The position numbers were made by a program, and so were the translations under genes. Of a stretch of DNA of 46,290 bases, positions 247 to 21,503 are shown piece by piece. The DNA comes from Candidatus Zambryskibacteria bacterium RIFCSPHIGHO2_02_FULL_43_14 (GTDB lineage Bacteria; Patescibacteriota; Minisyncoccia; Phycocordibacterales; Zambryskibacteraceae): positions 1 to 46,290 of the forward strand of contig MHVR01000015.1 of NCBI GenBank assembly GCA_001825315.1, written 5' to 3'. Under the pieces are notes generated by a model. It searched no databases. It was not told where the DNA came from and saw only the letters and a program-made list of their open reading frames with translations. Position 1 is the stretch's first letter. Every line of letters starts with the position of its first letter.

Positions 247-405
247 TTATCCACTCTTTAGCCAATTCCCGTTCATGATAGAAAAGTCTAAGGAGTTCAC
301 AATGCCATCCTCATTCAAATCAACCGTTGAATCATTCGTAAACCACCTGCTGTTCATTATAGACCAATCCAAGGAATTTACTATATGATCGTTGTTTATA
401 TCTCC
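247..405 (-). repeat. dockerin-module coding repeat, copy 1 of 9
   Basis: Two D.N.D..VNSLD loops. It shares an identical 38-nt tract (332..369) with copy 3 (3734..3771). Confidence 0.75.
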
Positions 406-1731
406 TTTGAAAATTGGAGGAATCACAGTAGGGGTTGGAGCAGGTGTGGGAGAAGTTCCACTTGAGCTTATTTTAAATACATGAATAATTGGTGTAAGCC
501 CGTTGGCAAAACTTTCGCTTACGTAAAGCAAGCTGTTGTTGCGGTCAAAAGTCATTAAAACAACTTCAGCCCCGCTACCAGTAGTCAGAAAAGTCGGCGC
601 ATAATTTCTCAAAAAATAGGGAGTCATATCAAACTTGGCATACCATTGCGGAATCCAGGAAGATTTTGTTCCATTAGCCACATCAGCCATGTCTTTCGGA
701 TCATAAAACAGCATTGCCGCTTGCGGTTCTCCCGCACGCCAGCCTCTTTGGCCTTTGCAGGTTCCGGACGGCTCGCAAGCATTCGGCACAGTCCAATTTT
801 CATATCCATAATAACTTTTCGCGGGATTATTATCTATTATGCCGCTTATGGCAACAGCAGCTTTATCGCCTAGAGTAAGCCACGCCCCGCCCTGGTAAGC
901 ATTGGCTGTTGAGTGCTGCTTGCTCCACTTTGATTGGTCTAAAAAAGGACCAAATTCCATTAACTTAGAACCGCTGATGCTTTCTCCTGCTGCGGTGGCA
1001 GTATTGGAAGCATAAAGATTGGTTCCTTCCCGGTCGCACCATCCTCTATGCCGACCGGTTGCCACATACTTTCCGCCAAGATTGGCATCAGCAAAAGATT
1101 TGGGAATCTCCATAATGTACCTTGTTGAGGTGAAAGGGTGTAAATTACTCCCATTAAGACTTACATACCACAGACCATTGGTTTGCGGATTGGACAGGTT
1201 GGGTGAAAAACGACCAAGGCCCGGGGCATTGCCGGGCAAAGAGCAGTCGGATTGGGAATCAGAGTAATCCTGCCCTTGGGTAAAATAGATTTTTCCATCG
1301 GATGGAATATAAGTCATGCCCATTATAAAACCTGTTTTATTGGAAATTCCGGCAGTTACATCTTTGAACGGCTGTAAAAGCGTGGCGGTGGGCAAATCGC
1401 TTAAGTTTTTGGAAATTATCGGCTTAGGAATACCTACTTCCGCAACTTTGGTTGCGTAAACATGACCTCCGACAAACAAAGAGCCAGAATAACCGTCAGA
1501 GGATCCGCCGGGATCGCCGCTCGGATAAAAAGCTATCGGCGCGTTAGAATATTCAAAAACGCCGTAACTGCCGTCATTTACGGAGGGCAGTTTGAATGCG
1601 CCCAAATAACTAATGTCGCTTGGCTGAATCAAAGAGGAAGCCGCGGCTTTGGACAAAAAATTCCCAGAAGGATAAATGAATACGCTGACTGCAAACAATA
1701 TTGCAAAAAAATAGCGGGTAGAATTTTTCAT
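247..1731 (-). CDS. secreted protein with C-terminal dockerin module; main domain not recognised
   Basis: 494-aa ORF. It has an N-terminal signal-like segment (YFFAILFAVSVFIYP), a P/T linker (SPTPAPTPTVIPP), and C-terminal GDINNDHIVNSLDWSIMNSRWFTNDSTVDLNEDGIVNSLDFSIMNGNWLKSG. Confidence 0.8.
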   Translation of the reverse strand: MKNSTRYFFAILFAVSVFIYPSGNFLSKAAASSLIQPSDISYLGAFKLPSVNDGSYGVFEYSNAPIAFYPSGDPGGSSDGYSGSLFVGGHVYATKVAEVGIPKPIISKNLSDLPTATLLQPFKDVTAGISNKTGFIMGMTYIPSDGKIYFTQGQDYSDSQSDCSLPGNAPGLGRFSPNLSNPQTNGLWYVSLNGSNLHPFTSTRYIMEIPKSFADANLGGKYVATGRHRGWCDREGTNLYASNTATAAGESISGSKLMEFGPFLDQSKWSKQHSTANAYQGGAWLTLGDKAAVAISGIIDNNPAKSYYGYENWTVPNACEPSGTCKGQRGWRAGEPQAAMLFYDPKDMADVANGTKSSWIPQWYAKFDMTPYFLRNYAPTFLTTGSGAEVVLMTFDRNNSLLYVSESFANGLTPIIHVFKISSSGTSPTPAPTPTVIPPIFKGDINNDHIVNSLDWSIMNSRWFTNDSTVDLNEDGIVNSLDFSIMNGNWLKSG

Positions 1732-1741
1732 ACTCTTTTTT

Positions 1742-3637
1742 TCAATGCTTTATATGAAGCGTACTGCCGAGGAGAATGCCATTGGCCCAATAAAATCCGG
1801 TGTTGCCCGATGGTAGTATATCGTATGTAGCGCCGTCATCGTAGGAAACGCGCTCAACGCTTGCGACCAAAGCCCCATCATATAGATCCCCGGGCCTAAG
1901 ATCACCAACAGTTCGTCCGTCACTGGTAGGATGCCCGGGAGAAACTAACAATTCCCTGCCATCATCTAGAATTAAACGGGCCATTTGATGAGATGGCGAC
2001 ACCTGAACCTTTGAAGTTTTAATTACAGAGCCTAAAACGCGGTCGCCTTCTTTGCCCGCTGTCCAAACAGACATACCGGTTTGTAGATTTTTTACCCTAA
2101 CCGATCCGAAAGGCGTATCAATGAGCGTATCTTCTGCAAGACAAATGGGACAAGGGCGATTTAAATCCATAATTTTAGCAAAAGTTGCGGTGTCCCCTTG
2201 AATTGACGCCAACGTTAGAGTAATTGTGCAGCCATTGCTTGCTGTTTCTCCAATTTTCAGCGTGACCGGATATCCTTGATTTACAGCCACCGGATATTCC
2301 GGATAATTCAACCCGGTCACATAGTCAGCGTATATTTTTTGTAGAATAAACGGGCCTTCTCGCTGGCCTTCCTTGAGTGTAACATGTGAACTTCCAAGCC
2401 CACTTTTCAGCCAGTTCCCGTTCATAATTGAGAAATCCAGAGAGTTCACGATTCCGTCACTGTTTAAATCAGCAGCGCTATCGCTGGTAAACCACTTACT
2501 GTTCATAATTGACCAATCTAACGAATTAACAATACCATCTCTATTAAGATCACCCTTCAACGTACTGATTGGCGGGGTTAAAGACGCTGATTTTAATCTA
2601 ATCCTGAATATTCTGTCATCATTTGATGCTGGAGTTCCGCGGCCATCTTTATTGCTAGTTGAAAAATATAACCAGCCGTCATGCGCCACAATACCTCGCA
2701 GTCTGCCGAAATTTTGGAAAAGAGCTTGATCCATCACTAAATTATTGTTGTTATCTACTACTACTCTTCTGATTTGTTTGCCTCTTAATCCAGCCATATA
2801 GATATCGCCTTGATATACGGCTATACCAGAAGGAGCCAAGGTAAATTCAGAAAAGCATCTTATGGGCTGCTTAATATTAGGATCAGATTCATTGCACTCA
2901 ATATCAGGCCAGCCATAATTATTTCCCTTTACCGCCAAATTTAGTTCATCATTGCTGTTATTGCCGTGCTCGGCCGCATAAAAAGAGCCGTTTGAAGGGT
3001 TCCAGGCTATGCCTTGGGGATTTCTATGGCCATAAGTCCAAACAAGATTGCCGAACGGATTATCGCCTGGGATGCTGCCGTCTTTATTGAGGCGCAAAAT
3101 TTTCCCGGCTAGAGAATTAGTATTTTGCGCGGAGGCCGCGTTAACCGCGTCACCGGTAGTGGAATATAATTTGCCGTCAGGACCGAAAGCAAGTCTTCCG
3201 CCGTCGTGATTGGAAGCAGCTGGAATATTGTCCAAAATCACTGTTTCATTAGTGAGAGATGTACCGTTGAAAATAAATCTTGAAATTCTGTTCCCAGTCG
3301 TGCGAGTATATTGAATATAAATATAATTATTAGAGCCGAAGTCTGGATCCACAGCCAAACCCATTACTCCCGTTTCGGAACCGCTGTACAAACTTGTAAC
3401 CTGTCCTATTGTCTGAATAGCCCCAGATGATTCTCTTAATTTAACAGCACCCGTTCTTTCGGTAAATATCATCCGCCCGTCAGGAAAAAAATCCATTGAC
3501 CAAGGTACACTTAGTCCACTGGCAAATGTCTCTATTTCAAAATCGCTGTCGCTTAGATTAGCGGTTTGGGCTTTAGTTTGTAGAAACGCAATGAGTGTCG
3601 CAAAAAGTATGATTGCAAAAAACCCGATTTTTTTCAT
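1742..3637 (-). CDS. secreted PQQ-dependent sugar dehydrogenase-like beta-propeller, with an internal dockerin and a C-terminal Hint domain
   Basis: 631 aa with a signal peptide. The motifs PWSMDFFPDGRMIFTER, HDGGRLAFGPDGKLY, GHRNPQGIAWNP and EHGNNSNDELNL..GNNYGWP are typical of soluble aldose/sorbosone dehydrogenases. The dockerin covers aa 362-411 and the Hint domain covers aa 499-631. Confidence 0.8.
   Translation of the reverse strand: MKKIGFFAIILFATLIAFLQTKAQTANLSDSDFEIETFASGLSVPWSMDFFPDGRMIFTERTGAVKLRESSGAIQTIGQVTSLYSGSETGVMGLAVDPDFGSNNYIYIQYTRTTGNRISRFIFNGTSLTNETVILDNIPAASNHDGGRLAFGPDGKLYSTTGDAVNAASAQNTNSLAGKILRLNKDGSIPGDNPFGNLVWTYGHRNPQGIAWNPSNGSFYAAEHGNNSNDELNLAVKGNNYGWPDIECNESDPNIKQPIRCFSEFTLAPSGIAVYQGDIYMAGLRGKQIRRVVVDNNNNLVMDQALFQNFGRLRGIVAHDGWLYFSTSNKDGRGTPASNDDRIFRIRLKSASLTPPISTLKGDLNRDGIVNSLDWSIMNSKWFTSDSAADLNSDGIVNSLDFSIMNGNWLKSGLGSSHVTLKEGQREGPFILQKIYADYVTGLNYPEYPVAVNQGYPVTLKIGETASNGCTITLTLASIQGDTATFAKIMDLNRPCPICLAEDTLIDTPFGSVRVKNLQTGMSVWTAGKEGDRVLGSVIKTSKVQVSPSHQMARLILDDGRELLVSPGHPTSDGRTVGDLRPGDLYDGALVASVERVSYDDGATYDILPSGNTGFYWANGILLGSTLHIKH
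1745..2143 (-). other. Hint (Hedgehog/intein-like) autoprocessing domain at the extreme C-terminus
   Basis: The domain starts CLAEDTLIDTPFGSVRVKNL (Cys-1 plus a T.I.T-type block A). It contains LVSPGHP (a TxxH-like block B) and ends YWANGILLGSTLHIKH followed by the stop. No C-extein follows. Confidence 0.6.
2405..2554 (-). repeat. dockerin-module coding repeat, copy 2 of 9 (internal, not C-terminal)
   Basis: GDLNRDGIVNSLDWSIMNSKWFTSDSAADLNSDGIVNSLDFSIMNGNWLK, at aa 362-411 of the 631-aa ORF. Confidence 0.75.
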
Positions 3638-3648
3638 AATTCTTCAAT

Positions 3649-3807
3649 TTAAACAGTCTTCAGCCAGTTTGAATTTAGAATTGAGAAATCTAAAGAATTA
3701 ACAATTCCATCGCTATTCAAATCAACAGTGGTATCATTCGTAAACCACCTGCTGTTCATTATAGACCAATCTAGCGAATTGACTATCTTGTCATTATTGA
3801 GATCACC
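3649..3807 (-). repeat. dockerin-module coding repeat, copy 3 of 9
   Basis: Same two-loop module as the other copies. Its 38-nt tract 3734..3771 is identical to 332..369. Confidence 0.75.
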
Positions 3808-5637
3808 TTTGAGAAAAGTGGTACTGTTACTATCAATAACAAGTTGCTTAATTTCTTTCATCTTCTGAACAGCCAACCAGCCACGGAGAACGTAACCGTT
3901 ATTTCTCAAAGCCTCGCCGGTTGTGTGAGTAGACGGATCGCCGCCGTATTGGTAAGGATCGCTTCCTCCGCCAAATCCCCCTGCGTTAACGGCATAATGC
4001 ACTCCGTCTCCGGAGAGAAAAGTTCCTCCCCATTCAGAGAATGGCCTGCGAGCCAGCATCTCGGCATTCAAATCAATTAGTGGCAGTTTCATCTCTTTTG
4101 CCAGATTTTTTATAGCATTATTATAAACATCAACCGCGGGATTGAAAGAAGGATTGCCGCTTATGCGATAAGTATAGGTGGAAAGTATTGGAACGATTTT
4201 TTTTGATATTAAAACATCAAGAATTTTTTTTAGATCTGTTACATTTGACGGATTCTCATAATAAAGATTGAATAGCGGGATTGCAAACTGCGCGTCAGGA
4301 AAAGCTGAAACAATAGTTGTTATATTCAGCGAGCTCGGATAGCTAGCGCAATCTTCAAGTTTTTGTTTTGCGGTTACGGAATTGGTATCAGCCGGCATTG
4401 AAGTCCCCAAAAAATCCCAAGTCCCACGTCCATCGCCTACTGTTCTGCTTCGGCTTGGGCAATGGTATTCGGTTGCAAGCGCAAAACCATCATAACTATT
4501 TATTGTAGCTGGAGCGGGACTGGCATGTAGCCACTGCGTAATCATTTTATCTTCAACAGTTTTTCCGTTTCCAGCTCTTGCCCATGCCCCGTAAGAATAA
4601 TCACGAGTCAAAGAATCGCCAAGGTGAAGCAGAAAGCCCTGAATTTTATTGGAACCGGCAAGTATTGATTTTGCATTGGCAACCCAGCCGTTTGACCCAT
4701 CCTGCCAAGCGTCATCATAAGAATTAGCACGATTTTTATTGTTATCTGAAGTCGTTTTGACATTTATTGTTACTACTTGGCTTGCGGATCCTGCCCCGTT
4801 TGTGGCCCTTAATGTATACGTGGTAGAAAGTTTTGGAGAAATTGAACGCGTTCCTGATACAGCAACGGTTCCAATACCATGATCAATATTTACTGCCGTT
4901 GCGTTAATCGCGTCCCAAGAAAGTGTTGTTGATTGTCCAACAATAATCGTAACGGGTGAAGCGGTAAAAGTGGAAACAGGCAACAAGGATTGATTAATGG
5001 ATTGCTGACCAGCAACGTTAACATGGTCAAAAATGGCATCTGTCAATAGACCATCCCTATGACTTGTAACAACCAGTCCAATATAAACATTTGTATTTAA
5101 CGTAAGAATAAGACTTCCTGCCTGGCTCCAACTAATACCGTCATTGGAAGTATACGCAACAAATGAATCGTCTATCCTTTTTAATTTAAGCCAGATCGGA
5201 GCTGTGCCAACGACTGAATTATAATTTGATATCTCGGCAGCCTCGGCGCGCTGTTGAAACGTCAGTCCGTTTGAAGGAGAAACCAGTAGAGCAACATTTC
5301 TTGATCCGGCTGTCAGATTCTCGCGGATCATAATTCCCGCTTTTGCCCACGGGTCGGTTTTTTGGATACTCACGACTTGGGTGATAATTTCCCCATCTCC
5401 GGACAATGGCTGATAAACATAAAAAAACTCATCTCCCCTGTTCCAGATATCATCGCCGGCGCCGCTTAAGTTAAAAACGCCATTGTTTATCAACGCTGTA
5501 CCAGGAGCGCTGACTTCTCCGATATCCTGCGCTAACCAAGGACTTAATAAAGATAATCCAACGGCATGAGTTTTTGGAGTCAAGATAATCAGTGAAATGA
5601 AAAAAAGCGAGATGACAAAAAATAATACACTCTTCAT
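3649..5637 (-). CDS. secreted ConA/LamG-like lectin domain, Ig-like domain, SGNH/GDSL hydrolase and dockerin
   Basis: 662 aa with a signal peptide. The N-terminal jelly-roll-like region has DDIWNRGDEFFYVYQ..WAKAGIMIR..YTSNDGISW. The SGNH blocks are GDSLT (block I) and GDGVHY (block V). The C-terminal dockerin is GDLNNDKIVNSLDW...DLNSDGIVNSLDF. Confidence 0.75.
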   Translation of the reverse strand: MKSVLFFVISLFFISLIILTPKTHAVGLSLLSPWLAQDIGEVSAPGTALINNGVFNLSGAGDDIWNRGDEFFYVYQPLSGDGEIITQVVSIQKTDPWAKAGIMIRENLTAGSRNVALLVSPSNGLTFQQRAEAAEISNYNSVVGTAPIWLKLKRIDDSFVAYTSNDGISWSQAGSLILTLNTNVYIGLVVTSHRDGLLTDAIFDHVNVAGQQSINQSLLPVSTFTASPVTIIVGQSTTLSWDAINATAVNIDHGIGTVAVSGTRSISPKLSTTYTLRATNGAGSASQVVTINVKTTSDNNKNRANSYDDAWQDGSNGWVANAKSILAGSNKIQGFLLHLGDSLTRDYSYGAWARAGNGKTVEDKMITQWLHASPAPATINSYDGFALATEYHCPSRSRTVGDGRGTWDFLGTSMPADTNSVTAKQKLEDCASYPSSLNITTIVSAFPDAQFAIPLFNLYYENPSNVTDLKKILDVLISKKIVPILSTYTYRISGNPSFNPAVDVYNNAIKNLAKEMKLPLIDLNAEMLARRPFSEWGGTFLSGDGVHYAVNAGGFGGGSDPYQYGGDPSTHTTGEALRNNGYVLRGWLAVQKMKEIKQLVIDSNSTTFLKGDLNNDKIVNSLDWSIMNSRWFTNDTTVDLNSDGIVNSLDFSILNSNWLKTV

Positions 5638-5638
5638 T

Positions 5639-5797
5639 TTACAGTGTTTTCAACCAATTCCCGTTCATGATTGAAAAATCCAAAGAATTGACAATACCGT
5701 CGCTATTTAGATCTGCGGTTGAATCACCGGTAAACCACTTACTGTTCATCATTGACCAGTCAAGAGAATTAACTATGCGGTCGTTGTTAAGATCGCC
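5639..5797 (-). repeat. dockerin-module coding repeat, copy 4 of 9
   Basis: GDLNNDRIVNSLDWSMMNSKWFTGDSTADLNSDGIVNSLDFSIMNGNWLKTL. Confidence 0.75.
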
Positions 5798-7297
5798 TTT
5801 GAGAGTTGGGGAAGGAGTTGGGGTGGGGGTTGGAGTAGGAGACGGTGGGGGTGGGCTGATAGAAGGAGGCGGGCAATTAGAAGTGCAATTATTGGATTGG
5901 GTGTTATTACTGCCGCCACTGATACTTATCGTACCGTGGCGAGAATTAACAATTGAATTGTCGTGAATTCTATAGTTGCTGCAGTTTCCATCAATTGTAA
6001 TTTGCGCTTGCCAGGTAAAATTAATGGAATTGTTGGAAAGATAATTGCCAAAGATATCAACATTGTTAGATGAAATTTCGCATGAACCTCTTATGCCAGC
6101 GCCCACGTTATCCGTAATAACATTACCGCTAACCACAAGATTGTCTGGGCTGGCAGGACCCGCAGTATTATCGCTTTCAATTCTTACACCTTCGTAATTA
6201 TTTCTTACAACCGTATTGTTTTTAAATACTACATTTTTTGAACGAATAATGATTCCCGGCCCGGCTCTTTGCTGGTCATATTCTTTGCCATACCCCGCTG
6301 AACATTGCGAACTCCAGCCAGAGTCCATTGATGCGTCATGGAAAACATTATTTTCAAAAGTATGCCCGCCACCGCTGGTAGTATCATCCGTGTGTATCAA
6401 TTCCGCCACATCTTGGGAAAAATCGCTGTTGCGAACAATAATTCCAGGTCCCCCGCCAATACCCATGCTATGACCATTGGTGCCATCTCTGGAAGGAGCG
6501 CAAACATTATTGCCGTTATAGCTCATCTTAATATTTTGAAAAGTTATATATGAAGCTGTGTTGTGCACTTGATAGGCTTGCACTGTAGCGGCAATCTCAT
6601 CAATACCATCGACTACCCAATTACTAACTCCATTATCAAATTCGAGCATGAACCCGCAAGCGGCATAAGTAACTGGCATACTGGTTGGATTAGTGCCATT
6701 AGCTGGGTGATAATATATTTTTTTGGCGCCGGGATCCATATTATACCAATCACCGTTGTTTGGAGGAGAAAAGTTGCCTGTCTTGGTACTTGGAATTAAT
6801 TTGTTGCCATTCCATAACTGACCCCATCGCACAGGATTAAGTGCACCCGTACTCGCCCAGTTGAAACTTATCACCCACCAACCAGCATGACTATCCTGTT
6901 GCCAAGTCCCACCGCCAGACTTAACATCAAAGCGACCATCGAGTAACACGTCTGCGTTATTGTATGCTTTTAAAGTTATCGGATTGCCGCTAGTTCCGCT
7001 TTTCGCCGGAAACATTTCACAATTATTATTTCCTCCTGGAGCATTCGGGTCAATATGATAACTTCCGGCCATAGCGTTTATCACATCCCCCGGACTTAGA
7101 CTGTTACTGGAAACAGCTCGCTCAATTGTTTTCCAGGGTTGAGATTCCGTACCTGGATTTGAATCAGAACCAGATGGTGAAATAAAGTATGTAGCAGCAT
7201 CGACTGAAGAATAGAGAGTGAGGAAAGTAAAAACAACGATACTCTGGATAAAAATTATCTTTTTTAAAAAATCCTTTATTTTTGTTCTCATAATCAT
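5639..7297 (-). CDS. secreted right-handed parallel beta-helix protein with dockerin
   Basis: 552 aa. After the signal/TM segment it reads ATYFISPSGSDSNPGTESQPWKTIERAV, an N-terminal cap typical of pectate-lyase-fold proteins. It has repeated N/G/V-rich beta-helix turns, the linker PPPSPTPTPTPTPSPT, and a dockerin. It abuts the stop codon of the upstream gene (0-nt gap). Confidence 0.8.
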   Translation of the reverse strand: MIMRTKIKDFLKKIIFIQSIVVFTFLTLYSSVDAATYFISPSGSDSNPGTESQPWKTIERAVSSNSLSPGDVINAMAGSYHIDPNAPGGNNNCEMFPAKSGTSGNPITLKAYNNADVLLDGRFDVKSGGGTWQQDSHAGWWVISFNWASTGALNPVRWGQLWNGNKLIPSTKTGNFSPPNNGDWYNMDPGAKKIYYHPANGTNPTSMPVTYAACGFMLEFDNGVSNWVVDGIDEIAATVQAYQVHNTASYITFQNIKMSYNGNNVCAPSRDGTNGHSMGIGGGPGIIVRNSDFSQDVAELIHTDDTTSGGGHTFENNVFHDASMDSGWSSQCSAGYGKEYDQQRAGPGIIIRSKNVVFKNNTVVRNNYEGVRIESDNTAGPASPDNLVVSGNVITDNVGAGIRGSCEISSNNVDIFGNYLSNNSINFTWQAQITIDGNCSNYRIHDNSIVNSRHGTISISGGSNNTQSNNCTSNCPPPSISPPPPSPTPTPTPTPSPTLKGDLNNDRIVNSLDWSMMNSKWFTGDSTADLNSDGIVNSLDFSIMNGNWLKTL

Positions 7298-7456
7298 CTA
7301 ACCGTTCTTCAACCAATTTCCATTCATAATGGAAAAATCCAGAGAATTAATAATGCCATCGCTATTCAAATCAGCAGTGGTATCGTTTGTATACCATCTA
7401 CTATTCATTATGGACCAATCCAGAGAATTGACTATTTTGTCGTTGTTCAGGTCACC
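7298..7456 (-). repeat. dockerin-module coding repeat, copy 5 of 9
   Basis: GDLNNDKIVNSLDWSIMNSRWYTNDTTADLNSDGIINSLDFSIMNGNWLKNG. Confidence 0.75.
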
Positions 7457-8965
7457 CTTGAGAGTGCCTGATGGCGTTGGGTTAGGACTTGGAATGGGAC
7501 TGGGAGTAGGTGCTGGGCCCGTGCTTCCTCCACTGCCATATTCAACAGCACCTGCATCTGGAGCAGCTCCATTATACGGAAGACTGACTCCGACTCCAGC
7601 AGTCCAAGATATTGACCTATCAACTGTAATGTTGTTGCCAGATTCATCAATAGACACCACTTTAACAATATTAGAGCCGATTTGAATTGTATCCGGATCA
7701 GTCATTCCGTAGCCGTTGTAAAAATAGAAACTTTCTTGGACAGGAACAATGGTACCGGAACCTCCGCTTCGCGTAGTAGTCAGAGCGACACCAGCATCAA
7801 TGGCATCAGAGCCTGCGGCTAATCTAAAATCTGTGGTTGATGGATTGACAAAAAGCTGGTTAAGAGTTTGGGTGCTGAATTTGCCGCCATTTGGTTCTTG
7901 GCCAGTGGCTGATCGCCAGCGGTTGAATTCAGCCAGACTTGTACCATAATTAGTTTCACCATTCAACAAGGCCCAGATAATGCCTTGTGAGGATGGGCGA
8001 TAAACATTGTGTTCCATTCGAATACTAGGGTAGGCACCATCCGCCGGATCTCGGGAATGCTGCATCAAATAATTTGTGGAAAATGCAAAAATATTATTTT
8101 TCACCGCAAACCCTCCCCAGCCTGAGGGACCATCGCCCCATTGCCAGAACAGTATACATTGGTTGCGACAATTGATTACAGAATTGCTGTAAAGCGCATC
8201 ATTTACGAAAGGCTTAACATAAAAAGTAAATCCTGCTCCGTAGATAGTGTTTCGACGTAGAATAGAAAATGTCGGAGCTTTGTCTATCTTGACCCTGTTC
8301 TCGTAAGGATTGCTTGGGCATGAGCCGGTACAATATACGGTGTTGCCATCGTAAACCATGTGATGGGTGTAATCTTCTATGGTGCTTCCTGTCTGGCTAC
8401 CGGCGTCAATAAAATCAGCACCGTCGCCTTCTGGGCCAGGATTATATATTATATTGTTTTTAACTATTACATAAGGCGTGCCATGAGCTTCAATGCCATC
8501 CCAGTTGCCAATCCCTTTCCACTCGTGAATTTTATTGCCTTCAATCAAAAAATAACCAGAATGAGCGTCCCACATGACTATGCCACCTTGAGTACAACTG
8601 TATATATCATTATTGCGAACAGTATTGCGGGTACCACTTAATTCAACACAGCCAAGACCCCCGCCATTTCTAATTACAAACCCTTCAACGACATTATTGC
8701 TTCCACTAAGATTTACCGTACCTTCAACAGTTGGGGTTTCTCCGGGATAGTTTTTAATGGTTTTGCCACTACCAGATACGGAAAATCCGCCGTAATTTCC
8801 ACCTCTTACCTGAATTATATCTCCAGATTGAGAAGAGTTAATGGCTGATTGAAGTTCTGAACTGCTAGAGACAGTTCTCGTGGCTGCAGTGGCAACCTTG
8901 TTAAAGCCAAAAGATAAAATAAACAAAATCCCAAGAATAATAAAATTAAGGATTTGATTCTTCAT
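7298..8965 (-). CDS. secreted parallel beta-helix protein with dockerin (paralog of 11320..12960)
   Basis: The ORF track starts at 8980, which is a TTG. The first ATG (MKNQILNF...) is at 8965 and forms an ATGA overlap with the stop of the upstream gene. By eye it is roughly 70% identical in protein to 11320..12975. It has an S/P/T linker and a dockerin. Confidence 0.8.
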   Translation of the reverse strand: MKNQILNFIILGILFILSFGFNKVATAATRTVSSSSELQSAINSSQSGDIIQVRGGNYGGFSVSGSGKTIKNYPGETPTVEGTVNLSGSNNVVEGFVIRNGGGLGCVELSGTRNTVRNNDIYSCTQGGIVMWDAHSGYFLIEGNKIHEWKGIGNWDGIEAHGTPYVIVKNNIIYNPGPEGDGADFIDAGSQTGSTIEDYTHHMVYDGNTVYCTGSCPSNPYENRVKIDKAPTFSILRRNTIYGAGFTFYVKPFVNDALYSNSVINCRNQCILFWQWGDGPSGWGGFAVKNNIFAFSTNYLMQHSRDPADGAYPSIRMEHNVYRPSSQGIIWALLNGETNYGTSLAEFNRWRSATGQEPNGGKFSTQTLNQLFVNPSTTDFRLAAGSDAIDAGVALTTTRSGGSGTIVPVQESFYFYNGYGMTDPDTIQIGSNIVKVVSIDESGNNITVDRSISWTAGVGVSLPYNGAAPDAGAVEYGSGGSTGPAPTPSPIPSPNPTPSGTLKGDLNNDKIVNSLDWSIMNSRWYTNDTTADLNSDGIINSLDFSIMNGNWLKNG

Positions 8966-9120
8966 ATTTGTTTTAGCCAATTCCCGTTCATGATTGAGAA
9001 GTCCAAAGAATTAACAATACCGTCGGTGTTTAGATCGGCAGTGACATCATTCATAAACCACCTGCTATTCATTATAGACCAATCCAGAGAATTGACTATG
9101 CGATCATTGTTAAGGTCACC
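8962..9120 (-). repeat. dockerin-module coding repeat, copy 6 of 9
   Basis: The 59-nt tract 9038..9096 is identical to 14647..14705 in copy 9. Confidence 0.75.
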
Positions 9121-10758
9121 CCTTAAAGTTCCGGGTGTCGGAACCGGGGTTGGGGTTGGCGATGGGTTAGGATTGGTAAATCCCGATTCAAATGCTCCCA
9201 TATCTGGAGCTGATCCGGCATACGGCAAACTCACGCCATCTCCTGCGTTCCAACTAATCGCGGAAACCAAGGTAATATTATGGCTTGAATAATCAATAGA
9301 CTTAATCTTAACCGGAGCATTTGATCCGACTTTGATTGCATCCGCTTCAATCATGCCATCATAGCCGTCTTGAAAAAATCCACTTCTTACGACTGGGACG
9401 ACAGTTCCATTTCCCGAAGAACGGGTTGCTGTCAGCTGATTACCCGCGTCAATAGCCGGACTGCCTGAAGCTAAACGATAATCACGACCGGATGAATTAA
9501 CAAACAATCCTGATGCGGAACCGATTTCTTTGCCTTTAGGCTCCTGCCCGGTCGATTTAAATGAAGCCAAATTTGAATACACTTGATCCCACAATATTCC
9601 TTTGGGCCCGAACTTGTACATATTTCCTTCCATATTAATTGACCCGCGATTAACACTGCCAAAAGCTCCATGCAAAACATAATTTTGACTATCTATAAAT
9701 AGATTATTAATAAAAGTGATTCCGAAAGACGTATTTGAGGAATCGCCGAAAAGCACGTTATGATTATTCTCGTTGACCATTGTATTGTTAAAAATCGTAG
9801 TGTTGTTATAGGGCGGAGAGTAAAAAGTCAGCTGGCCTTCAGTCGTCATGTTGTTGTATCTCATAATCGCATTTGAAGTTCCCAAACCGCTGAATTTAGT
9901 CCCGCCATTTTTGCCGTAAATAGTATTGTTTTCAACCAGATAGTAACCTGCGTCAGAATTTCTCCCCCCCAAATCAATGCCATCTGCATCGCCGGATAAA
10001 TTATTGTTGTAAACCGTATTATTCCTAACCACTACATGATGCGCCCCGCAGCCAAATCCGTTAAAAACATCTCCCCCGCCGACACCGATTGCGTCGTAAT
10101 TATCAACCCCTGCGTTGTTGTACACAATATTATTTTCAATCAAATAATATCCGCCGAAGGAACATTCGTAAACAAAAATACCTCCTACGGTATTATCGTG
10201 AATATTATTTCCACGAATAATAGCGTCGTGGCGAAGATTTCGAGGTAGATTAGGATTAGAACCTCCGGTGCCAATACCATGCATTGCATTATGGTGAATA
10301 TGATTATTGATAAACCAAACACCCATACTTCCACCCCCATCAATGCCGCTACCGTCATACCGAGCGCTTTTGATGCCATTCCTGATTTCAAAACCTTCTA
10401 TGGTAATATAGTCAGCCGGAGAAAAAAGATTTCCGCTAACAGCGCCGCCTCCTTCAATAACAGGTGTTTCTCCCGGATAATTTTTGTAAGTAATTCTAGC
10501 GTTAACGGTTCCGGCTTTTGCGCGAACCGCTTCATTATAAATTCCTCCCCGAACCAAAACCGTATCGCCAGGCTGCATCGTGTTTCCGGCTTTGTTAATT
10601 GTCCGCCACGGCGAAGATTCAGCACCGGGATTAGAATCAGTACCACTGGTTGACACATAATAAGTGGCTGCTTGCGCTCTTATAGAAAAAGTAAAAGTAG
10701 CGAGAAGAAATAACCCTGAGGCAAAAAGATATTTAGGGCTCAATTGAATAAACAGCAT
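8962..10758 (-). CDS. secreted parallel beta-helix protein with dockerin
   Basis: The ORF track start at 10764 is a TTG. An ATG at 10758 gives MLFIQLSPKYLFASGLFLLATFTFSIRAQA, followed by ATYYVSTSGTDSNPGAESSPWRTINKA. It has beta-helix repeats, a linker (NPNPSPTPTPVPTP) and a dockerin. Its 5' end overlaps the 3' end of the cohesin-like gene. Confidence 0.8.
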   Translation of the reverse strand: MLFIQLSPKYLFASGLFLLATFTFSIRAQAATYYVSTSGTDSNPGAESSPWRTINKAGNTMQPGDTVLVRGGIYNEAVRAKAGTVNARITYKNYPGETPVIEGGGAVSGNLFSPADYITIEGFEIRNGIKSARYDGSGIDGGGSMGVWFINNHIHHNAMHGIGTGGSNPNLPRNLRHDAIIRGNNIHDNTVGGIFVYECSFGGYYLIENNIVYNNAGVDNYDAIGVGGGDVFNGFGCGAHHVVVRNNTVYNNNLSGDADGIDLGGRNSDAGYYLVENNTIYGKNGGTKFSGLGTSNAIMRYNNMTTEGQLTFYSPPYNNTTIFNNTMVNENNHNVLFGDSSNTSFGITFINNLFIDSQNYVLHGAFGSVNRGSINMEGNMYKFGPKGILWDQVYSNLASFKSTGQEPKGKEIGSASGLFVNSSGRDYRLASGSPAIDAGNQLTATRSSGNGTVVPVVRSGFFQDGYDGMIEADAIKVGSNAPVKIKSIDYSSHNITLVSAISWNAGDGVSLPYAGSAPDMGAFESGFTNPNPSPTPTPVPTPGTLRGDLNNDRIVNSLDWSIMNSRWFMNDVTADLNTDGIVNSLDFSIMNGNWLKQI

Positions 10759-11296
10759 TTTCAACTTGGATTAGTTGATCTTGACCTTGATATGCCACAT
10801 TGGTATCAGTCGTGCTTCCTGGTTTGAAATCAAATTTTAAATTAGACACTCCCATCTTGACGGCCTTAAAATGTATAGTGGCCAAAATTCCCCTTCCGGA
10901 GAAATTCGTGCCGCCTGTCGCTACTTGGCTAAATTTAATAGTACCCGCGGATTGATCTACAATATTGGCCGCATTGATCGATAAAATTGAGCCTGCCTGA
11001 ATCTGGATTCCTTCTTGTTCTGGAATATCGTCAACTACCTGGATAACTAATGGATCGTAATGCAAAACAAACACATCCACTCCGTCAATTGGCTGGTTTG
11101 CCGTGTCTAAAACAATATCAATTGCAAATAGACTGTTTAATTTCGCGGTTTCATTATTCGGATCTAATAACAATATCGCACCGACTTTGGAATCTTGAGT
11201 GTTTACATCCAAAGATCTGTTTTTATCAATTAAAAAAATAATCACGCCAAGAGCTAATAAAGCAAGGACCCCGTATAAAATTTTTTGTTGTTGCAT
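10733..11296 (-). CDS. membrane-anchored single cohesin-like domain protein
   Basis: 187 aa. It has an N-terminal TM segment (ILYGVLALLALGVIIFLI). The rest follows the cohesin pattern: FAIDIVLDTANQPIDGVDVFVLHYDPLVIQVV ... AGSIL ... GTIKFSQVATGG.NFSGRGILATIHFKAVKMGVSNLKFDF. Confidence 0.7.
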   Translation of the reverse strand: MQQQKILYGVLALLALGVIIFLIDKNRSLDVNTQDSKVGAILLLDPNNETAKLNSLFAIDIVLDTANQPIDGVDVFVLHYDPLVIQVVDDIPEQEGIQIQAGSILSINAANIVDQSAGTIKFSQVATGGTNFSGRGILATIHFKAVKMGVSNLKFDFKPGSTTDTNVAYQGQDQLIQVENAVYSIEP

Positions 11297-11319
11297 ATTT
11301 AGTTATTAATTATTTTAAA

Positions 11320-11478
11320 TCATACGCTTTTCAACCAATTCCCATTCATGATGGAAAAATCCAGAGAATTAACGATGCCGTCGATGTTCAAATCAGCAGC
11401 GGTATCATTCGTAAACCACCTGCCATTCATTATAGACCAATCCAGAGAATTGACGATCTTGTCATTGTTGAGATCACC
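11320..11478 (-). repeat. dockerin-module coding repeat, copy 7 of 9
   Basis: GDLNNDKIVNSLDWSIMNGRWFTNDTAADLNIDGIVNSLDFSIMNGNWLKSV. Confidence 0.75.
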
Positions 11479-12960
11479 CTTGAGAATTGAACCACCACTT
11501 GATGAAGGCGTTGGCGCAGGTCCGGTTGAACCACCGCTACCATATTCAATCGCACCGGCATCAGGGGCAGCGCCGTTGTATGGGAGACTTACGCCATCCC
11601 CGGCACTCCAAGTTATAGAACGATCTATAGTGACAGTATTATTCCCTGCTGCTTCGCCTACTGCTATTACTTTTACAACATTAGAACCTATCTGAATCGT
11701 ATCTCCATCTGTCAGGCCATACCCATCAAAAAAATAAAAACTGTCATCTACTGGCACGACAGTACCGGATCCGCTACTTCTGGTTTTAGTTAAAGCTCCT
11801 CCCGCGTCAATAGCATCACCGCCAGATGCTAATCTGAAATCTGTTGTTGAAAGACTGGCAAATAACTGGCTCAAACTTTGGGTTGAATATTTTCCCCCAC
11901 TTGGTTCTTGACCGGTAACAGTTCGCCAGCGATTATATTCAGCCAAGCTTGTGCCATAATTGGATTCTCCGCTTAGCATAGCCCAAATAATGGCTTGGTT
12001 TGAGAAGCGGTAAACATTGTGATCCATTCTAATGCTTGGCCATGCTCCATCAGCCGCATCCCGCGAATGCTGTAATAAATAACCTCCGGAGTACGCAAAA
12101 ATATTATTTTTGACGCTAACACCGCCCCAACCAGACGGGCCATCGCCATCCTGCCAAAACATAATACAGTTATTCAGACAATTAACTGCTGTATTATTAT
12201 AAATGGCAACTTCTTTAAACGGTTTGACGTAAAAAGTAAAACTCGTTCCGGTTATAGTATTGCGACGTAAAATCGAGCGGGTGGGAACTTTGTTGATTTT
12301 AATTTTACTTTCGTATGGATTATTTAAACATGATCCGGTGCAATAAGCAGTATTGCCATCATAAACTATGTGATGAATATTGCTTTCCAAGCTGCCGGCA
12401 TCAATGAAGTCGCCAATACCAGGACCCGGACTCCATAAAACATTATTTTTTACTACAAGATAATTGGTTCCATGAATTTCTATTCCGTCCCAGTTGTCTT
12501 TGCCTAACCAATCATGAATCCTATTGCCTTCAATCAAAAAATGACCGCCTGCGTCCCACATTACTATTCCACCTTGCGTACAATTATATACTTCATTATT
12601 GCGAATCTTGTGTCCGGAGCCGGTTAACCAAACGCAACTGTCATTTGAATTCCTGATTATCAAGCCCTCAATTGTGTTATTACTCCCATTTACTCTTAGT
12701 GGCACCGAGCCGTTACCTGCATCTAAAATCGGAGTCTCTCCTGGGTAATTTTTTATTGTCATATTACTTCCAGAAACGGTAAATCCACCGTTATAAGTAC
12801 CTCCTCGAATCTGAATCACATCTCCAGAAACGCCAAGGGCTGATTGAAGTTCTGAACTGCTAGAGACAGTTCTTGTGGCTGCAGTGACAGCCTTGCTAAA
12901 GCCAAAGGACAAAATAAACAAAATCCCAAGAATAATAAAATTAAGGATTTGATTCTTCAT
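11320..12960 (-). CDS. secreted parallel beta-helix protein with dockerin (paralog of 7298..8965)
   Basis: The ORF track start at 12975 is a TTG. The ATG at 12960 forms an ATGA overlap with the upstream stop. The first 26 residues are identical to the paralog. Confidence 0.8.
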   Translation of the reverse strand: MKNQILNFIILGILFILSFGFSKAVTAATRTVSSSSELQSALGVSGDVIQIRGGTYNGGFTVSGSNMTIKNYPGETPILDAGNGSVPLRVNGSNNTIEGLIIRNSNDSCVWLTGSGHKIRNNEVYNCTQGGIVMWDAGGHFLIEGNRIHDWLGKDNWDGIEIHGTNYLVVKNNVLWSPGPGIGDFIDAGSLESNIHHIVYDGNTAYCTGSCLNNPYESKIKINKVPTRSILRRNTITGTSFTFYVKPFKEVAIYNNTAVNCLNNCIMFWQDGDGPSGWGGVSVKNNIFAYSGGYLLQHSRDAADGAWPSIRMDHNVYRFSNQAIIWAMLSGESNYGTSLAEYNRWRTVTGQEPSGGKYSTQSLSQLFASLSTTDFRLASGGDAIDAGGALTKTRSSGSGTVVPVDDSFYFFDGYGLTDGDTIQIGSNVVKVIAVGEAAGNNTVTIDRSITWSAGDGVSLPYNGAAPDAGAIEYGSGGSTGPAPTPSSSGGSILKGDLNNDKIVNSLDWSIMNGRWFTNDTAADLNIDGIVNSLDFSIMNGNWLKSV

Positions 12961-13115
12961 ATTTGTTTTAGCCAATTTGAGTTAAGAATGGAAAAATCCA
13001 GAGAATTGACTATGCCGTCGGTGTTTAGATCAGCAGTGGTATCATTCGTAAACCATCTGCTATTCATAATTGACCAATCAAGAGAGTTTACGATGCGATC
13101 ATTGTTAAGGTCACC
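12957..13115 (-). repeat. dockerin-module coding repeat, copy 8 of 9
   Basis: GDLNNDRIVNSLDWSIMNSRWFTNDTTADLNTDGIVNSLDFSILNSNWLKQI. Confidence 0.75.
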
Positions 13116-14558
13116 TTTGAGAACAGTAGGAGTTGGAGTCGGGGGAGGTGTTGAACCTGAAGTACCGCCATATTCGTAAGCGCCGATGTCAAAAGCCGAG
13201 CCGACTGGACGATTTACACCATCATAGTCCTTTGTTGCTTCAGATAAAGTTGTTCCGGCATTAATGGCGGGAGAACCTGATTGCAACCGGAAATCCGGAA
13301 CAATTGTACTAAATTTGGATCCCGGAAGTTTAACGAACTTTGGATCTGCAAATATCCCGTGTGAGTCTTGTGAAGGCTTTGTCCCTCCGCCGGTAGAGTA
13401 CCAAAGGTTATAATCTAGAATATTGCTTCCGACATTGCCGGAAAGCAAGCTGCCGCCATTGCTGCTGTAAATAATATTGTTTTTAAAAATGGAGTTGGTG
13501 GCTAAATTACTGTTAATTTCAAGGTTGCCATCCGGATTATTAACTATGACATTGTTGTAAACTCTGATATTGCTTGCCACTCCGGCGTGAGCGCCAACGA
13601 GAATGCCCCAATTAGAATTGTTAAAGACAATGTTATTCCTGACTATAATATTGCTGGCGCCGTAAGAATTTTCAGAACCCACTTCAATTCCCCACCAATT
13701 ATCATGAATGTAATTATTCTCAATTATCGTGTCGGTTCCGCCGTCAATATAGATCCCGCCAGACCAGCAAAAATAGCTGCCGCTGTAAATGTGGTTGCGG
13801 GTGATCAGTCCTCCTTTGGGTTGACTGCCCGCGCCATGGCCTAAGACATCTATGCCAATGTTCGGATGGCCGTAGATTGTGTTGTTGGATATGGTAAAAC
13901 CGTTCACGTTCCCGTCAACAGTGATGGATTCGCTATCTCCGGTATTATTATTGAAGACTTCGTTATTATCAATAATAATGTTGGATCCGCCCATTATTCT
14001 AATTGGTGTGGAATACTGCGTTCCTTGGCCTGGGCATATGGTGCTATTGGAAGCCCAGTCAATATGGGTAATTTTGCCGTCTCTAAACTCAATATTATTG
14101 GAGGATCCTGTAACGATAAAACCTCCGGGTATGTATCCCCCGACATGATTAGTTAGATGCAGACCGATAAATTTAAGATAGTTTTTATTGTTAATATTTA
14201 TTATTCCGCGAACATCACCGGAAGCAATATCACCCTTGCCATCTATAATGGCTGTCTCACTTGGGGCGTTTCTAAAAGTAATATAAGCGCCAGCGGTTCC
14301 GCTGACATTTACATTCAATATTTCATAGTATGTCCCGCCTTTTATATTAACCGTACTTCCTGCTGTTGCTGAATTCATAGCCTTTTGGATAGTTTTCCAA
14401 GGCGCGCTCTGTGTCCCAGGATTGCTGTCACTGCCATTAGTAGCGACATAGTATTGGGTTGAGGTTTGAGATTTGACTGGCAGACTGGGATATAAAACAG
14501 ATACAACCAAAGTGAAAATTAAAACTAACCAGGTGTACTTTGATATTTTTTGTTTCAT
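12957..14558 (-). CDS. secreted parallel beta-helix protein with dockerin
   Basis: 533 aa. It has a signal peptide, QYYVATNGSDSNPGTQSAPWKTIQKAM, many NN.I.N-type beta-helix turns, a linker (TPPPTPTPT) and a dockerin. Confidence 0.8.
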   Translation of the reverse strand: MKQKISKYTWLVLIFTLVVSVLYPSLPVKSQTSTQYYVATNGSDSNPGTQSAPWKTIQKAMNSATAGSTVNIKGGTYYEILNVNVSGTAGAYITFRNAPSETAIIDGKGDIASGDVRGIININNKNYLKFIGLHLTNHVGGYIPGGFIVTGSSNNIEFRDGKITHIDWASNSTICPGQGTQYSTPIRIMGGSNIIIDNNEVFNNNTGDSESITVDGNVNGFTISNNTIYGHPNIGIDVLGHGAGSQPKGGLITRNHIYSGSYFCWSGGIYIDGGTDTIIENNYIHDNWWGIEVGSENSYGASNIIVRNNIVFNNSNWGILVGAHAGVASNIRVYNNVIVNNPDGNLEINSNLATNSIFKNNIIYSSNGGSLLSGNVGSNILDYNLWYSTGGGTKPSQDSHGIFADPKFVKLPGSKFSTIVPDFRLQSGSPAINAGTTLSEATKDYDGVNRPVGSAFDIGAYEYGGTSGSTPPPTPTPTVLKGDLNNDRIVNSLDWSIMNSRWFTNDTTADLNTDGIVNSLDFSILNSNWLKQI

Positions 14559-14570
14559 AAAGATGTTTAG

Positions 14571-14729
14571 TTAAATTGTTTTCAACCAATTCCTGTTCAT
14601 TATGGAGAAGTCTAGAGAATTAACAATACCGTAGGTGTTCAAATCAGCAGTGACATCATTCATAAACCACCTGCTATTCATTATAGACCAATCCAGAGAA
14701 TTGACGATCTTGTCGTTATTAAAGTCGCC
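14571..14729 (-). repeat. dockerin-module coding repeat, copy 9 of 9
   Basis: The 59-nt tract 14647..14705 is identical to 9038..9096. Confidence 0.75.
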
Positions 14730-17293: not shown

Positions 17294-17367
17294 GCCAAAG
17301 TAGTTCAATGGTAGAACACTGCTTTCGTAAAGCAGGAACGTGAGTCCGATTCTCACCTTTGGCTCCA
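17294..17367 (+). tRNA. tRNA-Thr (anticodon CGT), CCA encoded
   Basis: Manual cloverleaf: acceptor GCCAAAG/CTTTGGC, D stem GTTC/GAAC, anticodon stem CTGCT/AGCAG with loop TTCGTAA, T arm GTGAG-TCCGATT-CTCAC, then T-CCA. Confidence 0.85.
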
Positions 17368-17397
17368 GAATAAATGATTTTTTAGAGGAGGAAATGA

Positions 17398-20064: not shown

Positions 20065-20549
20065 CGGTTTAAATCTACATGATTTATAATAATGTTAGAC
20101 CTATCGGTGGTTTTTACAGAAGAGCGAATGGTAATATTGATCGCTTCTGCTGCCTTCTTAAGATATAAGGATGAAATCAGGTCACCTTGAGAAGAATTGA
20201 TAATCTGCCATTTATTGTCCGTGGCCCATTTGGTGTAGAAATCGTAATTTGCCTCTGGATTTTTTGACGAAATGAATTCAACTGTGAATTGTACGGCTAA
20301 AGAGCCGGGATATGTAGCTGAATAAGATCCAACAATTTCAATTTTTGAGTTTAAAACCAATTCTTTGGGAAATCCTTCCGCTACTTCTTTTGGATTGGCC
20401 CTAACTATAGTGGGAACCGTTATGTTGTCGGTTTGAGACTGAATATTACGTTCATTTGTTCTGTTGATATTGTTTCGAACTAACAAAACAACAGCAACCA
20501 ATATAAAAATACCGATGGCAAAATAAGCATAATTTTTCCATTGTTGCAT
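20061..20549 (-). CDS. N-terminally anchored membrane protein of unknown function
   Basis: The ORF track extends to 20615. The ATG at 20549 gives MQQWKNYAYFAIGIFILVAVVLLV (a TM anchor). It is coupled by ATGA to the 888-aa gene. Confidence 0.6.
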   Translation of the reverse strand: MQQWKNYAYFAIGIFILVAVVLLVRNNINRTNERNIQSQTDNITVPTIVRANPKEVAEGFPKELVLNSKIEIVGSYSATYPGSLAVQFTVEFISSKNPEANYDFYTKWATDNKWQIINSSQGDLISSLYLKKAAEAINITIRSSVKTTDRSNIIINHVDLNR

Positions 20550-20654
20550 ATCACCATTCCTCAAGCCCTCAATCATAATGAATATGATATCAAATTGTAA
20601 ATAAAAGATATCCACACAAACAAGAAATCACATATCAGTCGCATATCCTTACTG

Positions 20655-20726
20655 AGCCGGAAGAGAGAATCGGACTCTCGACCTCCATCTTACCAAGATG
20701 GCGTTCTACCACTGAACTATCCCGGC
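20655..20726 (-). tRNA. tRNA-Thr (anticodon GGT)
   Basis: Reverse complement: GCCGGGA TA GTTC AGTGGTA GAAC G CCATC TTGGTAA GATGG AGGTC GAGAG TCCGATT CTCTC TTCCGGC T. Confidence 0.85.
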
Positions 20727-20795
20727 AGTTCGAAATAACGGCTCTAATCTTATAGAATTTTAAGTCTTTTTGCAAAACAACACTTGATTGCACCC

Positions 20796-21164: not shown

Positions 21165-21222
21165 ATTTTTATCTTTATTATTAAATACTATTACATTATA
21201 CTCTTAATTTCAATTTATAATT

Positions 21223-21405
21223 TTACCAGTCGCTCTTATCTCTCACCTCCCTCACTGCAGCTTGATTCGGGTCTTCGTCCAGTTCAATATGACCACCTAC
21301 TGCTAGCCACTTATCATATTTATCGTGCTTTCTTATTAGCACTTTGTCTTTGTAAACTACAAAAATATCGACCGTAAAATCAATTTTCTCGTGAATATGT
21401 GGCAT
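21223..21405 (-). pseudogene. truncated Nudix hydrolase (N-terminal 60 aa only)
   Basis: The ORF ends inside the Nudix box: GGHIELDEDPNQAAVREVRDKSDW then a stop. The expected REx2EExG continuation is missing. AT-rich sequence follows. Confidence 0.55.
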
Positions 21406-21497: not shown

Positions 21498-21503
21498 ACG
21501 ATT

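Follow-up and report, generated by a model that had tools for sequence, protein, structure and literature searches.

A terminal Hint domain of predicted N-cleavage-only type on a dockerin-bearing dehydrogenase from an uncultivated groundwater bacterium

INTRODUCTION

What role could a Hint (Hedgehog/intein) domain play at the extreme end of a dehydrogenase that is secreted and also carries a dockerin? This arrangement is encoded by open reading frame (ORF) 1742..3637 of contig MHVR01000015.1, from an uncultivated groundwater bacterium (Candidatus Zambryskibacteria bacterium RIFCSPHIGHO2_02_FULL_43_14, Patescibacteriota). The whole 46,290-nucleotide stretch that was analyzed is referred to here as the window. 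Profile, structural and alignment evidence supports the last 133 residues of the protein as a Hint domain of the N-cleavage-only type. Its most likely function, as read from sequence, would be that of a self-removing C-terminal tail, cut between Ile498 and Cys499. The cut product is also encoded directly by some relatives, in what we term pre-cut genes. The Hint and the domain preceding it read as one portable cassette, which in this lineage was joined to a dockerin enzyme where that gene's stop codon used to be.

RESULTS AND DISCUSSION

Domain organization of the gene

The protein consists, in order, of a signal peptide, a dehydrogenase propeller, a dockerin, an 87-residue region termed here the pre-Hint domain, and a 133-residue Hint domain that runs directly into the stop codon. 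The parts of the gene, with the basis for each, are as follows (an arrow marks a predicted scissile bond).

1742..3637, minus strand: whole gene, 631 codons plus a TGA stop at 1742..1744
3569..3637, minus strand: predicted Sec signal peptide, residues 1 to ~23, MKKIGFFAIILFATLIAFLQTKA, read from the sequence by eye
2639..3514, minus strand: pyrroloquinoline quinone (PQQ)-dependent glucose/sorbosone dehydrogenase (GSDH) beta-propeller, residues 42-333 (PF07995, TIGR03606)
2405..2557, minus strand: dockerin, residues 361-411, ending ...NGNWLKSG (PF00404)
2144..2404, minus strand: pre-Hint domain, residues 412-498 (family conservation; predicted local distance difference test [pLDDT] score of the model, 91.4)
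2228..2230, minus strand: Cys470, invariant (65/65 aligned sequences) and kept in Hint-less forms
2141..2152, minus strand: junction C496-P497-I498↓C499, predicted scissile bond Ile498-Cys499 (invariance; ends of Hint-less genes)
1745..2143, minus strand: Hint domain, residues 499-631, with the stop directly after it (Hint_2, model, Foldseek, profile alignment)
1931..1942, minus strand: block B equivalent S566-P-G-H569 (65/65; aligned to intein S-x-x-H)
1763..1828, minus strand: block F/G equivalent TYDILPSGNTGFYWANGILLGS, residues 604-625 (Asp606 invariant; Gly624-Ser625 at the intein His-Asn positions)

The predicted signal peptide shows a basic N-terminus, a hydrophobic core and a TKA↓Q end. 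The dehydrogenase region matched PF07995 (E 4.5e-80) and TIGR03606 (E 1.2e-48), and residues 361-406 matched the type I dockerin family of Pfam (Dockerin_1, PF00404; E 6.3e-09). Positions 1745..2143 translate exactly to residues 499-631, starting CLAEDTLIDTP and ending NGILLGSTLHIKH before the stop, so that translation confirmed the coordinates, the Cys-first tail of 133 residues and the immediate stop given in the initial annotation of this DNA. Gene calls on 23 contigs, assembled independently from several ENA and JGI samples, give the identical 631-residue protein. Given this and the unbroken reading frame, an assembly or frameshift artefact was ruled out as the source of the fusion.

A Hint fold equipped for N-terminal cleavage only

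The initial annotation had proposed that the tail is a Hint fold with a nucleophilic Cys at position 1 and no C-extein, resembling Hedgehog or bacterial intein-like (BIL) modules rather than splicing inteins, and three lines of evidence now support this. First, residues 499-631 alone matched Pfam Hint_2 (PF13403) at 31.0 bits (E 3.8e-07; gathering score, 28.4 bits), and the 220-residue tail (residues 412-631) matched at 30.2 bits; the match begins at residue 498/499 and spans only profile positions 1-81 of 147. Second, an AlphaFold model of the same tail, built on 65 homologues, reached a mean pLDDT of 92.3. Foldseek comparison of this model with the PDB gave approximately 45 matches at E≤0.001, all of them Hint-fold structures at a probability of 1.00, with template modelling (TM) scores, by target, of 0.66-0.77 to inteins, BIL domains and the Hedgehog autoprocessing domain (Hh-C). 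These included mini-inteins (gp41-1 6qaz, MchDnaB1 6riy, Mtu RecA, and Ssp and Npu DnaB; TM up to 0.77), BIL domains (Tetrahymena BIL2, 6tmm/6y75, and Clostridium thermocellum, 2lwy) and Hh-C (1at0 and 6tyy). Third, the family profile aligned to the consensus "Cat" intein and to gp41-1, with LLVSPGHP falling on block B (S/T-x-x-H) and TYDILPSGNTGFYWANGIL on blocks F and G.

Cys499 (position 1), Ser566, His569 and the block F Asp606 are invariant in all 65 aligned diverse members, among them the equivalents (Ser566 and His569) of the block B Thr/His that the initial annotation had called for. Every residue required to make a thioester at the N-terminal junction is thus in place and strictly selected. 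Fold and catalytic residues make the domain a member of the HINT superfamily. With fold matches at a probability of 1.00 and more than 3,000 homologues, chance can be dismissed as the source of the signal.

The residues for splicing are absent. Gly624-Ser625 occupy the positions of the intein penultimate His and terminal Asn in the window protein, and across 168 Hint-bearing relatives the same positions hold G, D, K, A or R followed by Ser; none of these 168 has His-Asn within its last 12 residues. The window protein stops 4 residues after its final S-T-L and 6 after Ser625, leaving no C-extein. At most 4 residues follow the closing S-T-L motif in 156/168 members, and neither these nor the window protein carry an extension C-terminal to the Hint that resembles a sterol- or adduct-recognition region. 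Pretoxin-Hint (PF07591) gave no match even at E≤10, and no domain follows the Hint, which distinguishes it from the pretoxin-Hints of polymorphic toxins with their downstream toxin domain. Lacking both His-Asn and a C-extein, the domain is restricted to N-terminal cleavage, and splicing is impossible.

The pre-Hint domain and its pairing with the Hint

Residues 412-498, which the initial annotation had treated as an unassigned spacer, instead form a conserved all-beta domain with which this Hint clade is constantly paired. They match no Pfam or NCBIfam family and share the motifs EGQREG...EYP...SNGC...RPCPI in the family alignment. Modelled alone, the segment reached a pLDDT of 91.4, with seven strands and no helix. 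A known fold was sought for it and set aside: the PDB held no structural match at E<0.001 (best E 0.07, TM<0.3), and a viral library returned only weak, uninformative matches to unnamed proteins (best E 2.4e-3).

A search of residues 412-631 against a large protein collection gave 3,255 matches. The best 120 of these cover ~95% of the query at 52-70% identity, which indicates that the pre-Hint region is conserved as strongly as the Hint. The pre-Hint family is compact, its profile recovering 192 clusters (50% identity) among 1.84 billion representatives. At the junction C-P-I↓C-L, conservation is nearly complete (C 65/65, P 64/65, I 62/65, C 65/65, L 65/65), and the third Cys, Cys470 in the motif SNGC, is invariant as well (65/65). 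Two Hint-bearing relatives from outside the window (L013 and L033) have C-P-R↓C in place of C-P-I↓C; hence, the -1 residue is not absolutely fixed. This Hint clade is always preceded by the pre-Hint domain and was not seen inserted in unrelated genes.

Most carriers of the cassette are proteins of 250-385 residues that are membrane-anchored and lack a dockerin. In total, more than 3,000 proteins of archaea and of bacteria of the candidate phyla radiation (CPR) have the cassette, with source names that include Parcubacteria, Colwellbacteria, Acetothermia, Methanoperedens and Nitrosopumilaceae. A hydrophobic N-terminal anchor occurs in 117/168 members, and a typical member has a leader, a Pro/Thr-rich linker and sometimes a small Cys-rich module. 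Many members (among P0001-P0120) start with M-N-Q-K-G-F-(I/V)-N-I and a hydrophobic stretch, which recalls a prepilin (class III) signal without Glu+5; no Pfam N-methyl match was found on family members of this type. The window Hint protein has an ordinary signal peptide, not this leader.

Recognizable cargo is rare and comprises TIG, Kazal plus dockerin (P0026), cupredoxin (P0145 and P0146) and, in the window, GSDH plus dockerin. The two cupredoxin proteins are longer carriers in which a cupredoxin/plastocyanin-like domain lies upstream of the pre-Hint domain. With cupredoxin and a PQQ dehydrogenase among them, the rare identifiable cargoes include at least two kinds of extracellular redox protein. 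In one protein of 3,657 residues (P0244), pre-Hint profile positions 3-44 were matched in 11 separate stretches, and part of the domain may thus occur as a repeat in a different context.

Relatives that stop at the predicted scissile bond

The profile search divided the pre-Hint representatives into three forms. In approximately 165, ...CPI-C runs on into a Hint of ~130 residues. A further ~25 end ...CPIC plus a tail of 3-12 residues, typically W-H/Q-x-x. The remaining form, with ~45 cluster representatives, stops exactly after ...CP(I/L/V), that is, at the residue before Cys1 of the Hint. Examples of the short-tail form (P0123-P0183) are CPICWHNKN and CPICWAQMQFMSGWS, which keep the second Cys without a Hint.

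In addition to two Hint-less loci found first, five were located by searching genome and metagenome contigs with a narrow sub-alignment of the pre-Hint domain that is blind to the junction. In these seven loci, ...CP[ILV] is followed by a genuine stop codon, four times TAA and three times TGA, while 17/17 Hint-bearing loci have TGT or TGC at the Cys1 position. Selenocysteine (CxxU) or another recoding of TGA was considered, as the first two loci had TGA, and was rejected: the five further loci gave TAA four times and TGA once, and the downstream frames are unconserved. The TAA codons in 4/7 loci, together with the lack of any conserved read-through or Hint remnant downstream of the stop in all seven, mark these as real stop codons.

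Hint-less and Hint-bearing forms are interleaved on a neighbor-joining tree of the pre-Hint domain, and sequences on the two sides of this divide share up to 85% identity. Parsimony on the tree counted ~25 state changes, compared with ~61 for shuffled labels; the count is rough, given the shortness of the domain and a few truncated gene calls among the short-tail entries. Genes that end at residue -1 show that such a product is viable, and they mark Ile498-Cys499 as the probable processing site. They also point towards plain cleavage and away from ligation. Cys470 and Cys496 are both retained in Hint-less forms that lack Cys499. Hence, these two likely form a structural disulfide pair, which would leave Cys499 free as the nucleophile.

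Addition of the cassette to a dockerin enzyme

A full-length search found GSDH, dockerin and Hint together only in the window protein's own 90% cluster. A conserved GSDH-dockerin-Hint fusion was ruled out, as the nearest relative stops after the dockerin. This relative (P0259) is 77% identical, 418 residues long and ends ...NGNWLKTG followed by its stop. At the DNA level, homology to it runs from window position 3813 down to 2406 at 72.6% identity and ends at the relative's TAG, past which the window reads CTT GGA AGT..., translated L-G-S-S-H-V-T-L-K-E-G-Q, the start of the cassette. The 660-nucleotide cassette therefore takes over where the ancestral gene stopped. Another protein, P0026 (Kazal, dockerin and cassette), is 66% identical to the window protein over dockerin and cassette, indicating that dockerin-cassette fusions recur.

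The initial annotation had also set the Hint within a cohesin-dockerin system, as an unusual second route of attachment or maturation. A specific link of this kind was not borne out: most carriers are small, membrane-anchored and dockerin-free, and the cohesin-dockerin connection is therefore secondary. The annotation was right that ORF 1742..3637 has the only internal dockerin in the window. By tblastn there are nine dockerin copies, and by Pfam the remaining eight sit at the extreme C-terminus of their ORFs. The dockerin end ...NGNWLKSG coincides with the stop-codon position in these eight sister genes and in the closest relative. No obvious conserved neighbor gene accompanies the cassette in the two contexts compared (a Parcubacteria genome and Methanoperedens).

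Comparison with known Hint systems

The Hedgehog autoprocessing domain ends ...VLASC, which resembles the ANGILLGS end of the window Hint, without His-Asn. The Hog domain is likewise a C-terminal Hint that carries out only the N-to-S acyl shift and releases a secreted N-terminal part (PMC7664689), and its structures 1at0 and 6tyy are among the fold matches. It differs in that the window family is prokaryotic, lacks a sterol-recognition region and has the junction P-I↓C-L rather than G↓C-F. BUBL proteins of Tetrahymena also have a small domain directly upstream of a BIL/Hint, with a C-terminus that is activated as a thioester (PMC8616854), as would be the case here, and BIL2 (6tmm, 6y75) is a top structural match. 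However, the upstream domain in the window family is all-beta and not a ubiquitin-like beta-grasp, and the proteins are extracellular. BIL2 moreover ends in Asn (the crystallized variant is N143A) and has a downstream domain, whereas the window Hint has neither.

Class 1 mini-inteins (gp41-1, DnaB and RecA) are the best fold matches (TM ~0.75), and their blocks A, B and F align by sequence. The window Hint lacks their terminal Asn, penultimate His, C-extein and endonuclease, and the family is not inserted in a conserved host protein, its host proteins being variable. Together, these differences exclude splicing and show that the domain is not an intein. Redox-trap inteins share Cys at -3, Pro at -2 and Cys at 1 with the window family (C-P-G-C in the engineered Ssp DnaE intein and C-P-I-C here), and the Pab MoaA intein has a native Cys-3/Cys1 disulfide (PMC3922620). 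In the window family, by contrast, C-P-I-C is natural and invariant, and the third invariant Cys, Cys470, offers an alternative partner.

Bacterial Hints of the B-type BIL/Hint_2 group are found in non-conserved secreted or surface proteins, keep Cys1 and block B, and, like the window family, lack the C-terminal His-Asn motif and a +1 nucleophile. The window Hint fits the published B-type BIL definition (PMC7765530), being assigned by that definition and not by B-type-specific motifs or clade, for which the Hint_2 match is indirect evidence. It departs from B-type BILs in that the Hint of the window family is always the last domain, as a rule with 0-6 residues after it, and has a dedicated preceding beta-domain with an invariant C-P-I↓C junction. 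Furthermore, Hint-less genes ending at that junction exist, and the carriers are mainly CPR bacteria and archaea. A-type BILs are set apart by their conserved C-terminal His-Asn (PMC7765530), which the window family lacks.

Clostridial cellulosomes provide a precedent for Hint domains in dockerin-rich proteomes. The Hint domains of C. thermocellum are A-type BILs ending in His-Asn, and one of them (2lwy) is a fold match of the window Hint. The list of module abbreviations in a survey of the B. cellulosolvens cellulosome includes "HintN" (PMC5590126). The host of the window protein, judged by the genes of the window and the taxa in which homologues occur, looks in contrast like a CPR bacterium and not a Clostridium.

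Proposed processing and alternative explanations

On balance, we consider it probable that the terminal Hint is catalytically competent and self-cleaves at Ile498-Cys499, with the product most likely released by hydrolysis or thiolysis. After Sec export, the Hint would fold and, with the help of Ser566/His569 (block B) and Asp606 (block F), Cys499 would attack the Ile498 carbonyl in an N-to-S acyl shift to give a thioester. Water or a small thiol would most likely resolve this thioester, which would free the 133-residue Hint and leave a GSDH-dockerin-beta-domain product ending ...N-R-P-C-P-I-COOH. The Cys470-Cys496 disulfide, which we infer from the retention of both residues in Hint-less forms, would pin the strand that leads into the scissile bond. 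Release by water or thiol is favored over transfer to an acceptor because nothing after the Hint could recruit one and because lineages freely switch to genes that are unable to form the thioester. A further reason is that N-cleavage has been reported for B-type BIL domains, which cleave their N-terminal flank (PMC7765530).

Several observations weigh against this reading. Within the full-length protein, the Hint_2 score is 27.0, just under the threshold of 28.4, and for this reason the precomputed annotation labels the Hint match as weak. What Hint-less genes demonstrate is the viability of the short form; they do not show that the Hint-bearing form ends in a free carboxylate. Conservation of the Hint at 55-70% identity across phyla, which hydrolysis as the sole outcome would not readily explain, suggests that the thioester, or the Hint itself, is useful. 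Lastly, a CxxC disulfide between Cys1 and the invariant Cys at -3 could block cleavage outside the cell.

The strongest alternative is transfer of the Hedgehog or BUBL kind, in which the Cys499 thioester would react with an amine or hydroxyl group of a lipid, a cell-wall precursor, a cohesin scaffold or a host surface in place of water. The enzyme-dockerin-beta-domain unit would then be anchored covalently without sortase or ATP. Precedents are Hedgehog, which uses its Hint thioester for cholesterol (PMC7664689), and Tetrahymena BUBL, in which BIL2, one of the best fold matches of the window Hint, conjugates the preceding ubiquitin-like domain to lysines (PMC8616854). The cassette, as a constant C-terminal tag on varied surface proteins, also resembles a sorting or anchoring signal, and the Hint is strongly conserved. 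However, no acceptor-recruiting region follows the Hint, the two loci compared share no conserved neighbor gene, and the pre-Hint domain is not ubiquitin-like. Moreover, the frequent and repeated switching to Hint-less genes, which cannot form a thioester, argues that an adduct is not essential. We regard transfer as unlikely, if a serious contender, and ligation of the unit to lipid, cell wall or another protein in particular as speculation.

Redox control of the cleavage is rather improbable. Under this explanation, a CxxC disulfide between Cys496 (-3) and Cys499 (1) would trap the precursor, which would fire only in a reducing setting (e.g., anoxic groundwater or on contact with a partner); such gating would modify cleavage or transfer and not replace either. 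It is in line with the invariance of C-P-I-C and with the engineered Ssp DnaE Cys-3/Cys1 disulfide and its native Pab MoaA counterpart, both of which control N-cleavage (PMC3922620), and a trapped structure (3nzm) is among the Foldseek matches. The persistence of Cys470 and Cys496 where Cys499 is missing nonetheless makes Cys470-Cys496 the more likely constant pair, with Cys499 free.

It is still less probable that the terminal Hint is a largely selfish or neutral passenger, spreading horizontally with the cassette and tolerated as an exact self-remover, much like an intein that needs no ligation step since nothing follows it. Close relatives differ in whether they have the Hint, with the difference falling exactly at the junction, as would be expected of a passenger. 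The cassette was added at an old stop codon here, and the 77%-identical relative lacks it. The taxonomic distribution is also patchy (CPR phyla, Acidimicrobiales, a gammaproteobacterial metagenome-assembled genome, Methanosarcinales, Methanoperedens and Nitrosopumilaceae). Yet the family lacks a homing endonuclease and any other function for mobility, the Hint is accompanied throughout by the pre-Hint domain without having been seen inserted in unrelated genes, and long-term conservation of all catalytic residues is also expected from a useful function. Finally, a Hint that has lost autoprocessing and serves as a C-terminal binding or structural module has nothing specific in its favor and is highly improbable, as none of the 65 diverse sequences departs from Cys1, the block B Ser/His or the block F Asp, and Hint-less genes end precisely at the predicted scissile bond.

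Genomic surroundings

Nine secreted proteins, each with a near-identical dockerin (77-90% amino acid identity), are encoded in tandem at 247..16310 on the minus strand. Their catalytic parts are mostly right-handed beta-helix/DUF1565 domains; one is GDSL-like, and in two no Pfam domain was recognized. Among the long ORFs of the window, none showed a cohesin. An ORF of 888 residues (17398..20064) without any Pfam match may be considered as a scaffold candidate. Dockerin-coding DNA is repeated between the genes at 73-89% identity (247..14558 against L036, a contig of the relative), and in L036 the gene order differs, with the GSDH gene adjoining the orthologue of window ORF 12957..14558. Together, the repeated DNA and altered order suggest that recombination between the repeated dockerin ends reshuffles the array.

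Six transfer RNA (tRNA) genes lie within 17294..23130 and 41014..41101, including two adjacent tRNA-Met genes (22905..22976 and 23059..23130) beside tRNA-Asp. The tRNA genes are located between the dockerin array and housekeeping genes (a GatA-like amidase and LigA). Type IV pilus genes (PilB-, PilT-, PilC- and PilM-like) occupy 28459..39713, with a prepilin peptidase at 30140..30892.

Implications

Hint chemistry, in which an N-to-S acyl shift leads to cleavage or transfer, is well known, while the family is undescribed, no description of this Hint/pre-Hint family having been found in the literature searched. Four features appear to be new to the literature: a dedicated beta-domain without a known fold as obligate partner, a Hint that is strictly terminal, a C-P-I↓C junction that is invariant, and Hint-bearing genes that coexist with exactly pre-cut ones. 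The same domain thus exists in a form with a Hint, a form with a short tail and a form that stops at the predicted scissile bond, a natural experiment that is absent from inteins and Hedgehog. These three forms make the role of the terminal Hint, whether maturation, anchoring or that of a tolerated passenger, directly testable. The chemistry itself is expected; it is the family, its cut/uncut polymorphism and its attachment to a dockerin enzyme that are worth experiment. If the thioester is only hydrolyzed, the domain would be a compact, naturally N-cleaving Hint without a C-extein that could serve protein engineering.

For the source organism, the findings suggest that one of the nine dockerin enzymes in the window is probably processed after export, unlike its neighbors. 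A more far-reaching and doubtful possibility is that the cassette is a covalent attachment device of ultra-small bacteria and archaea, in which the thioester of the beta-domain is captured by an amine or hydroxyl of the envelope, a cohesin scaffold or a host surface. If so, it would be a prokaryotic counterpart of Hedgehog lipidation and BUBL conjugation, working without sortase or ATP, and in the window gene it would fasten a redox enzyme with a dockerin covalently in position, triggered by the redox state of the CxxC junction. Transfer of the thioester would then give organisms with minimal genomes a new means of attaching proteins to surfaces.

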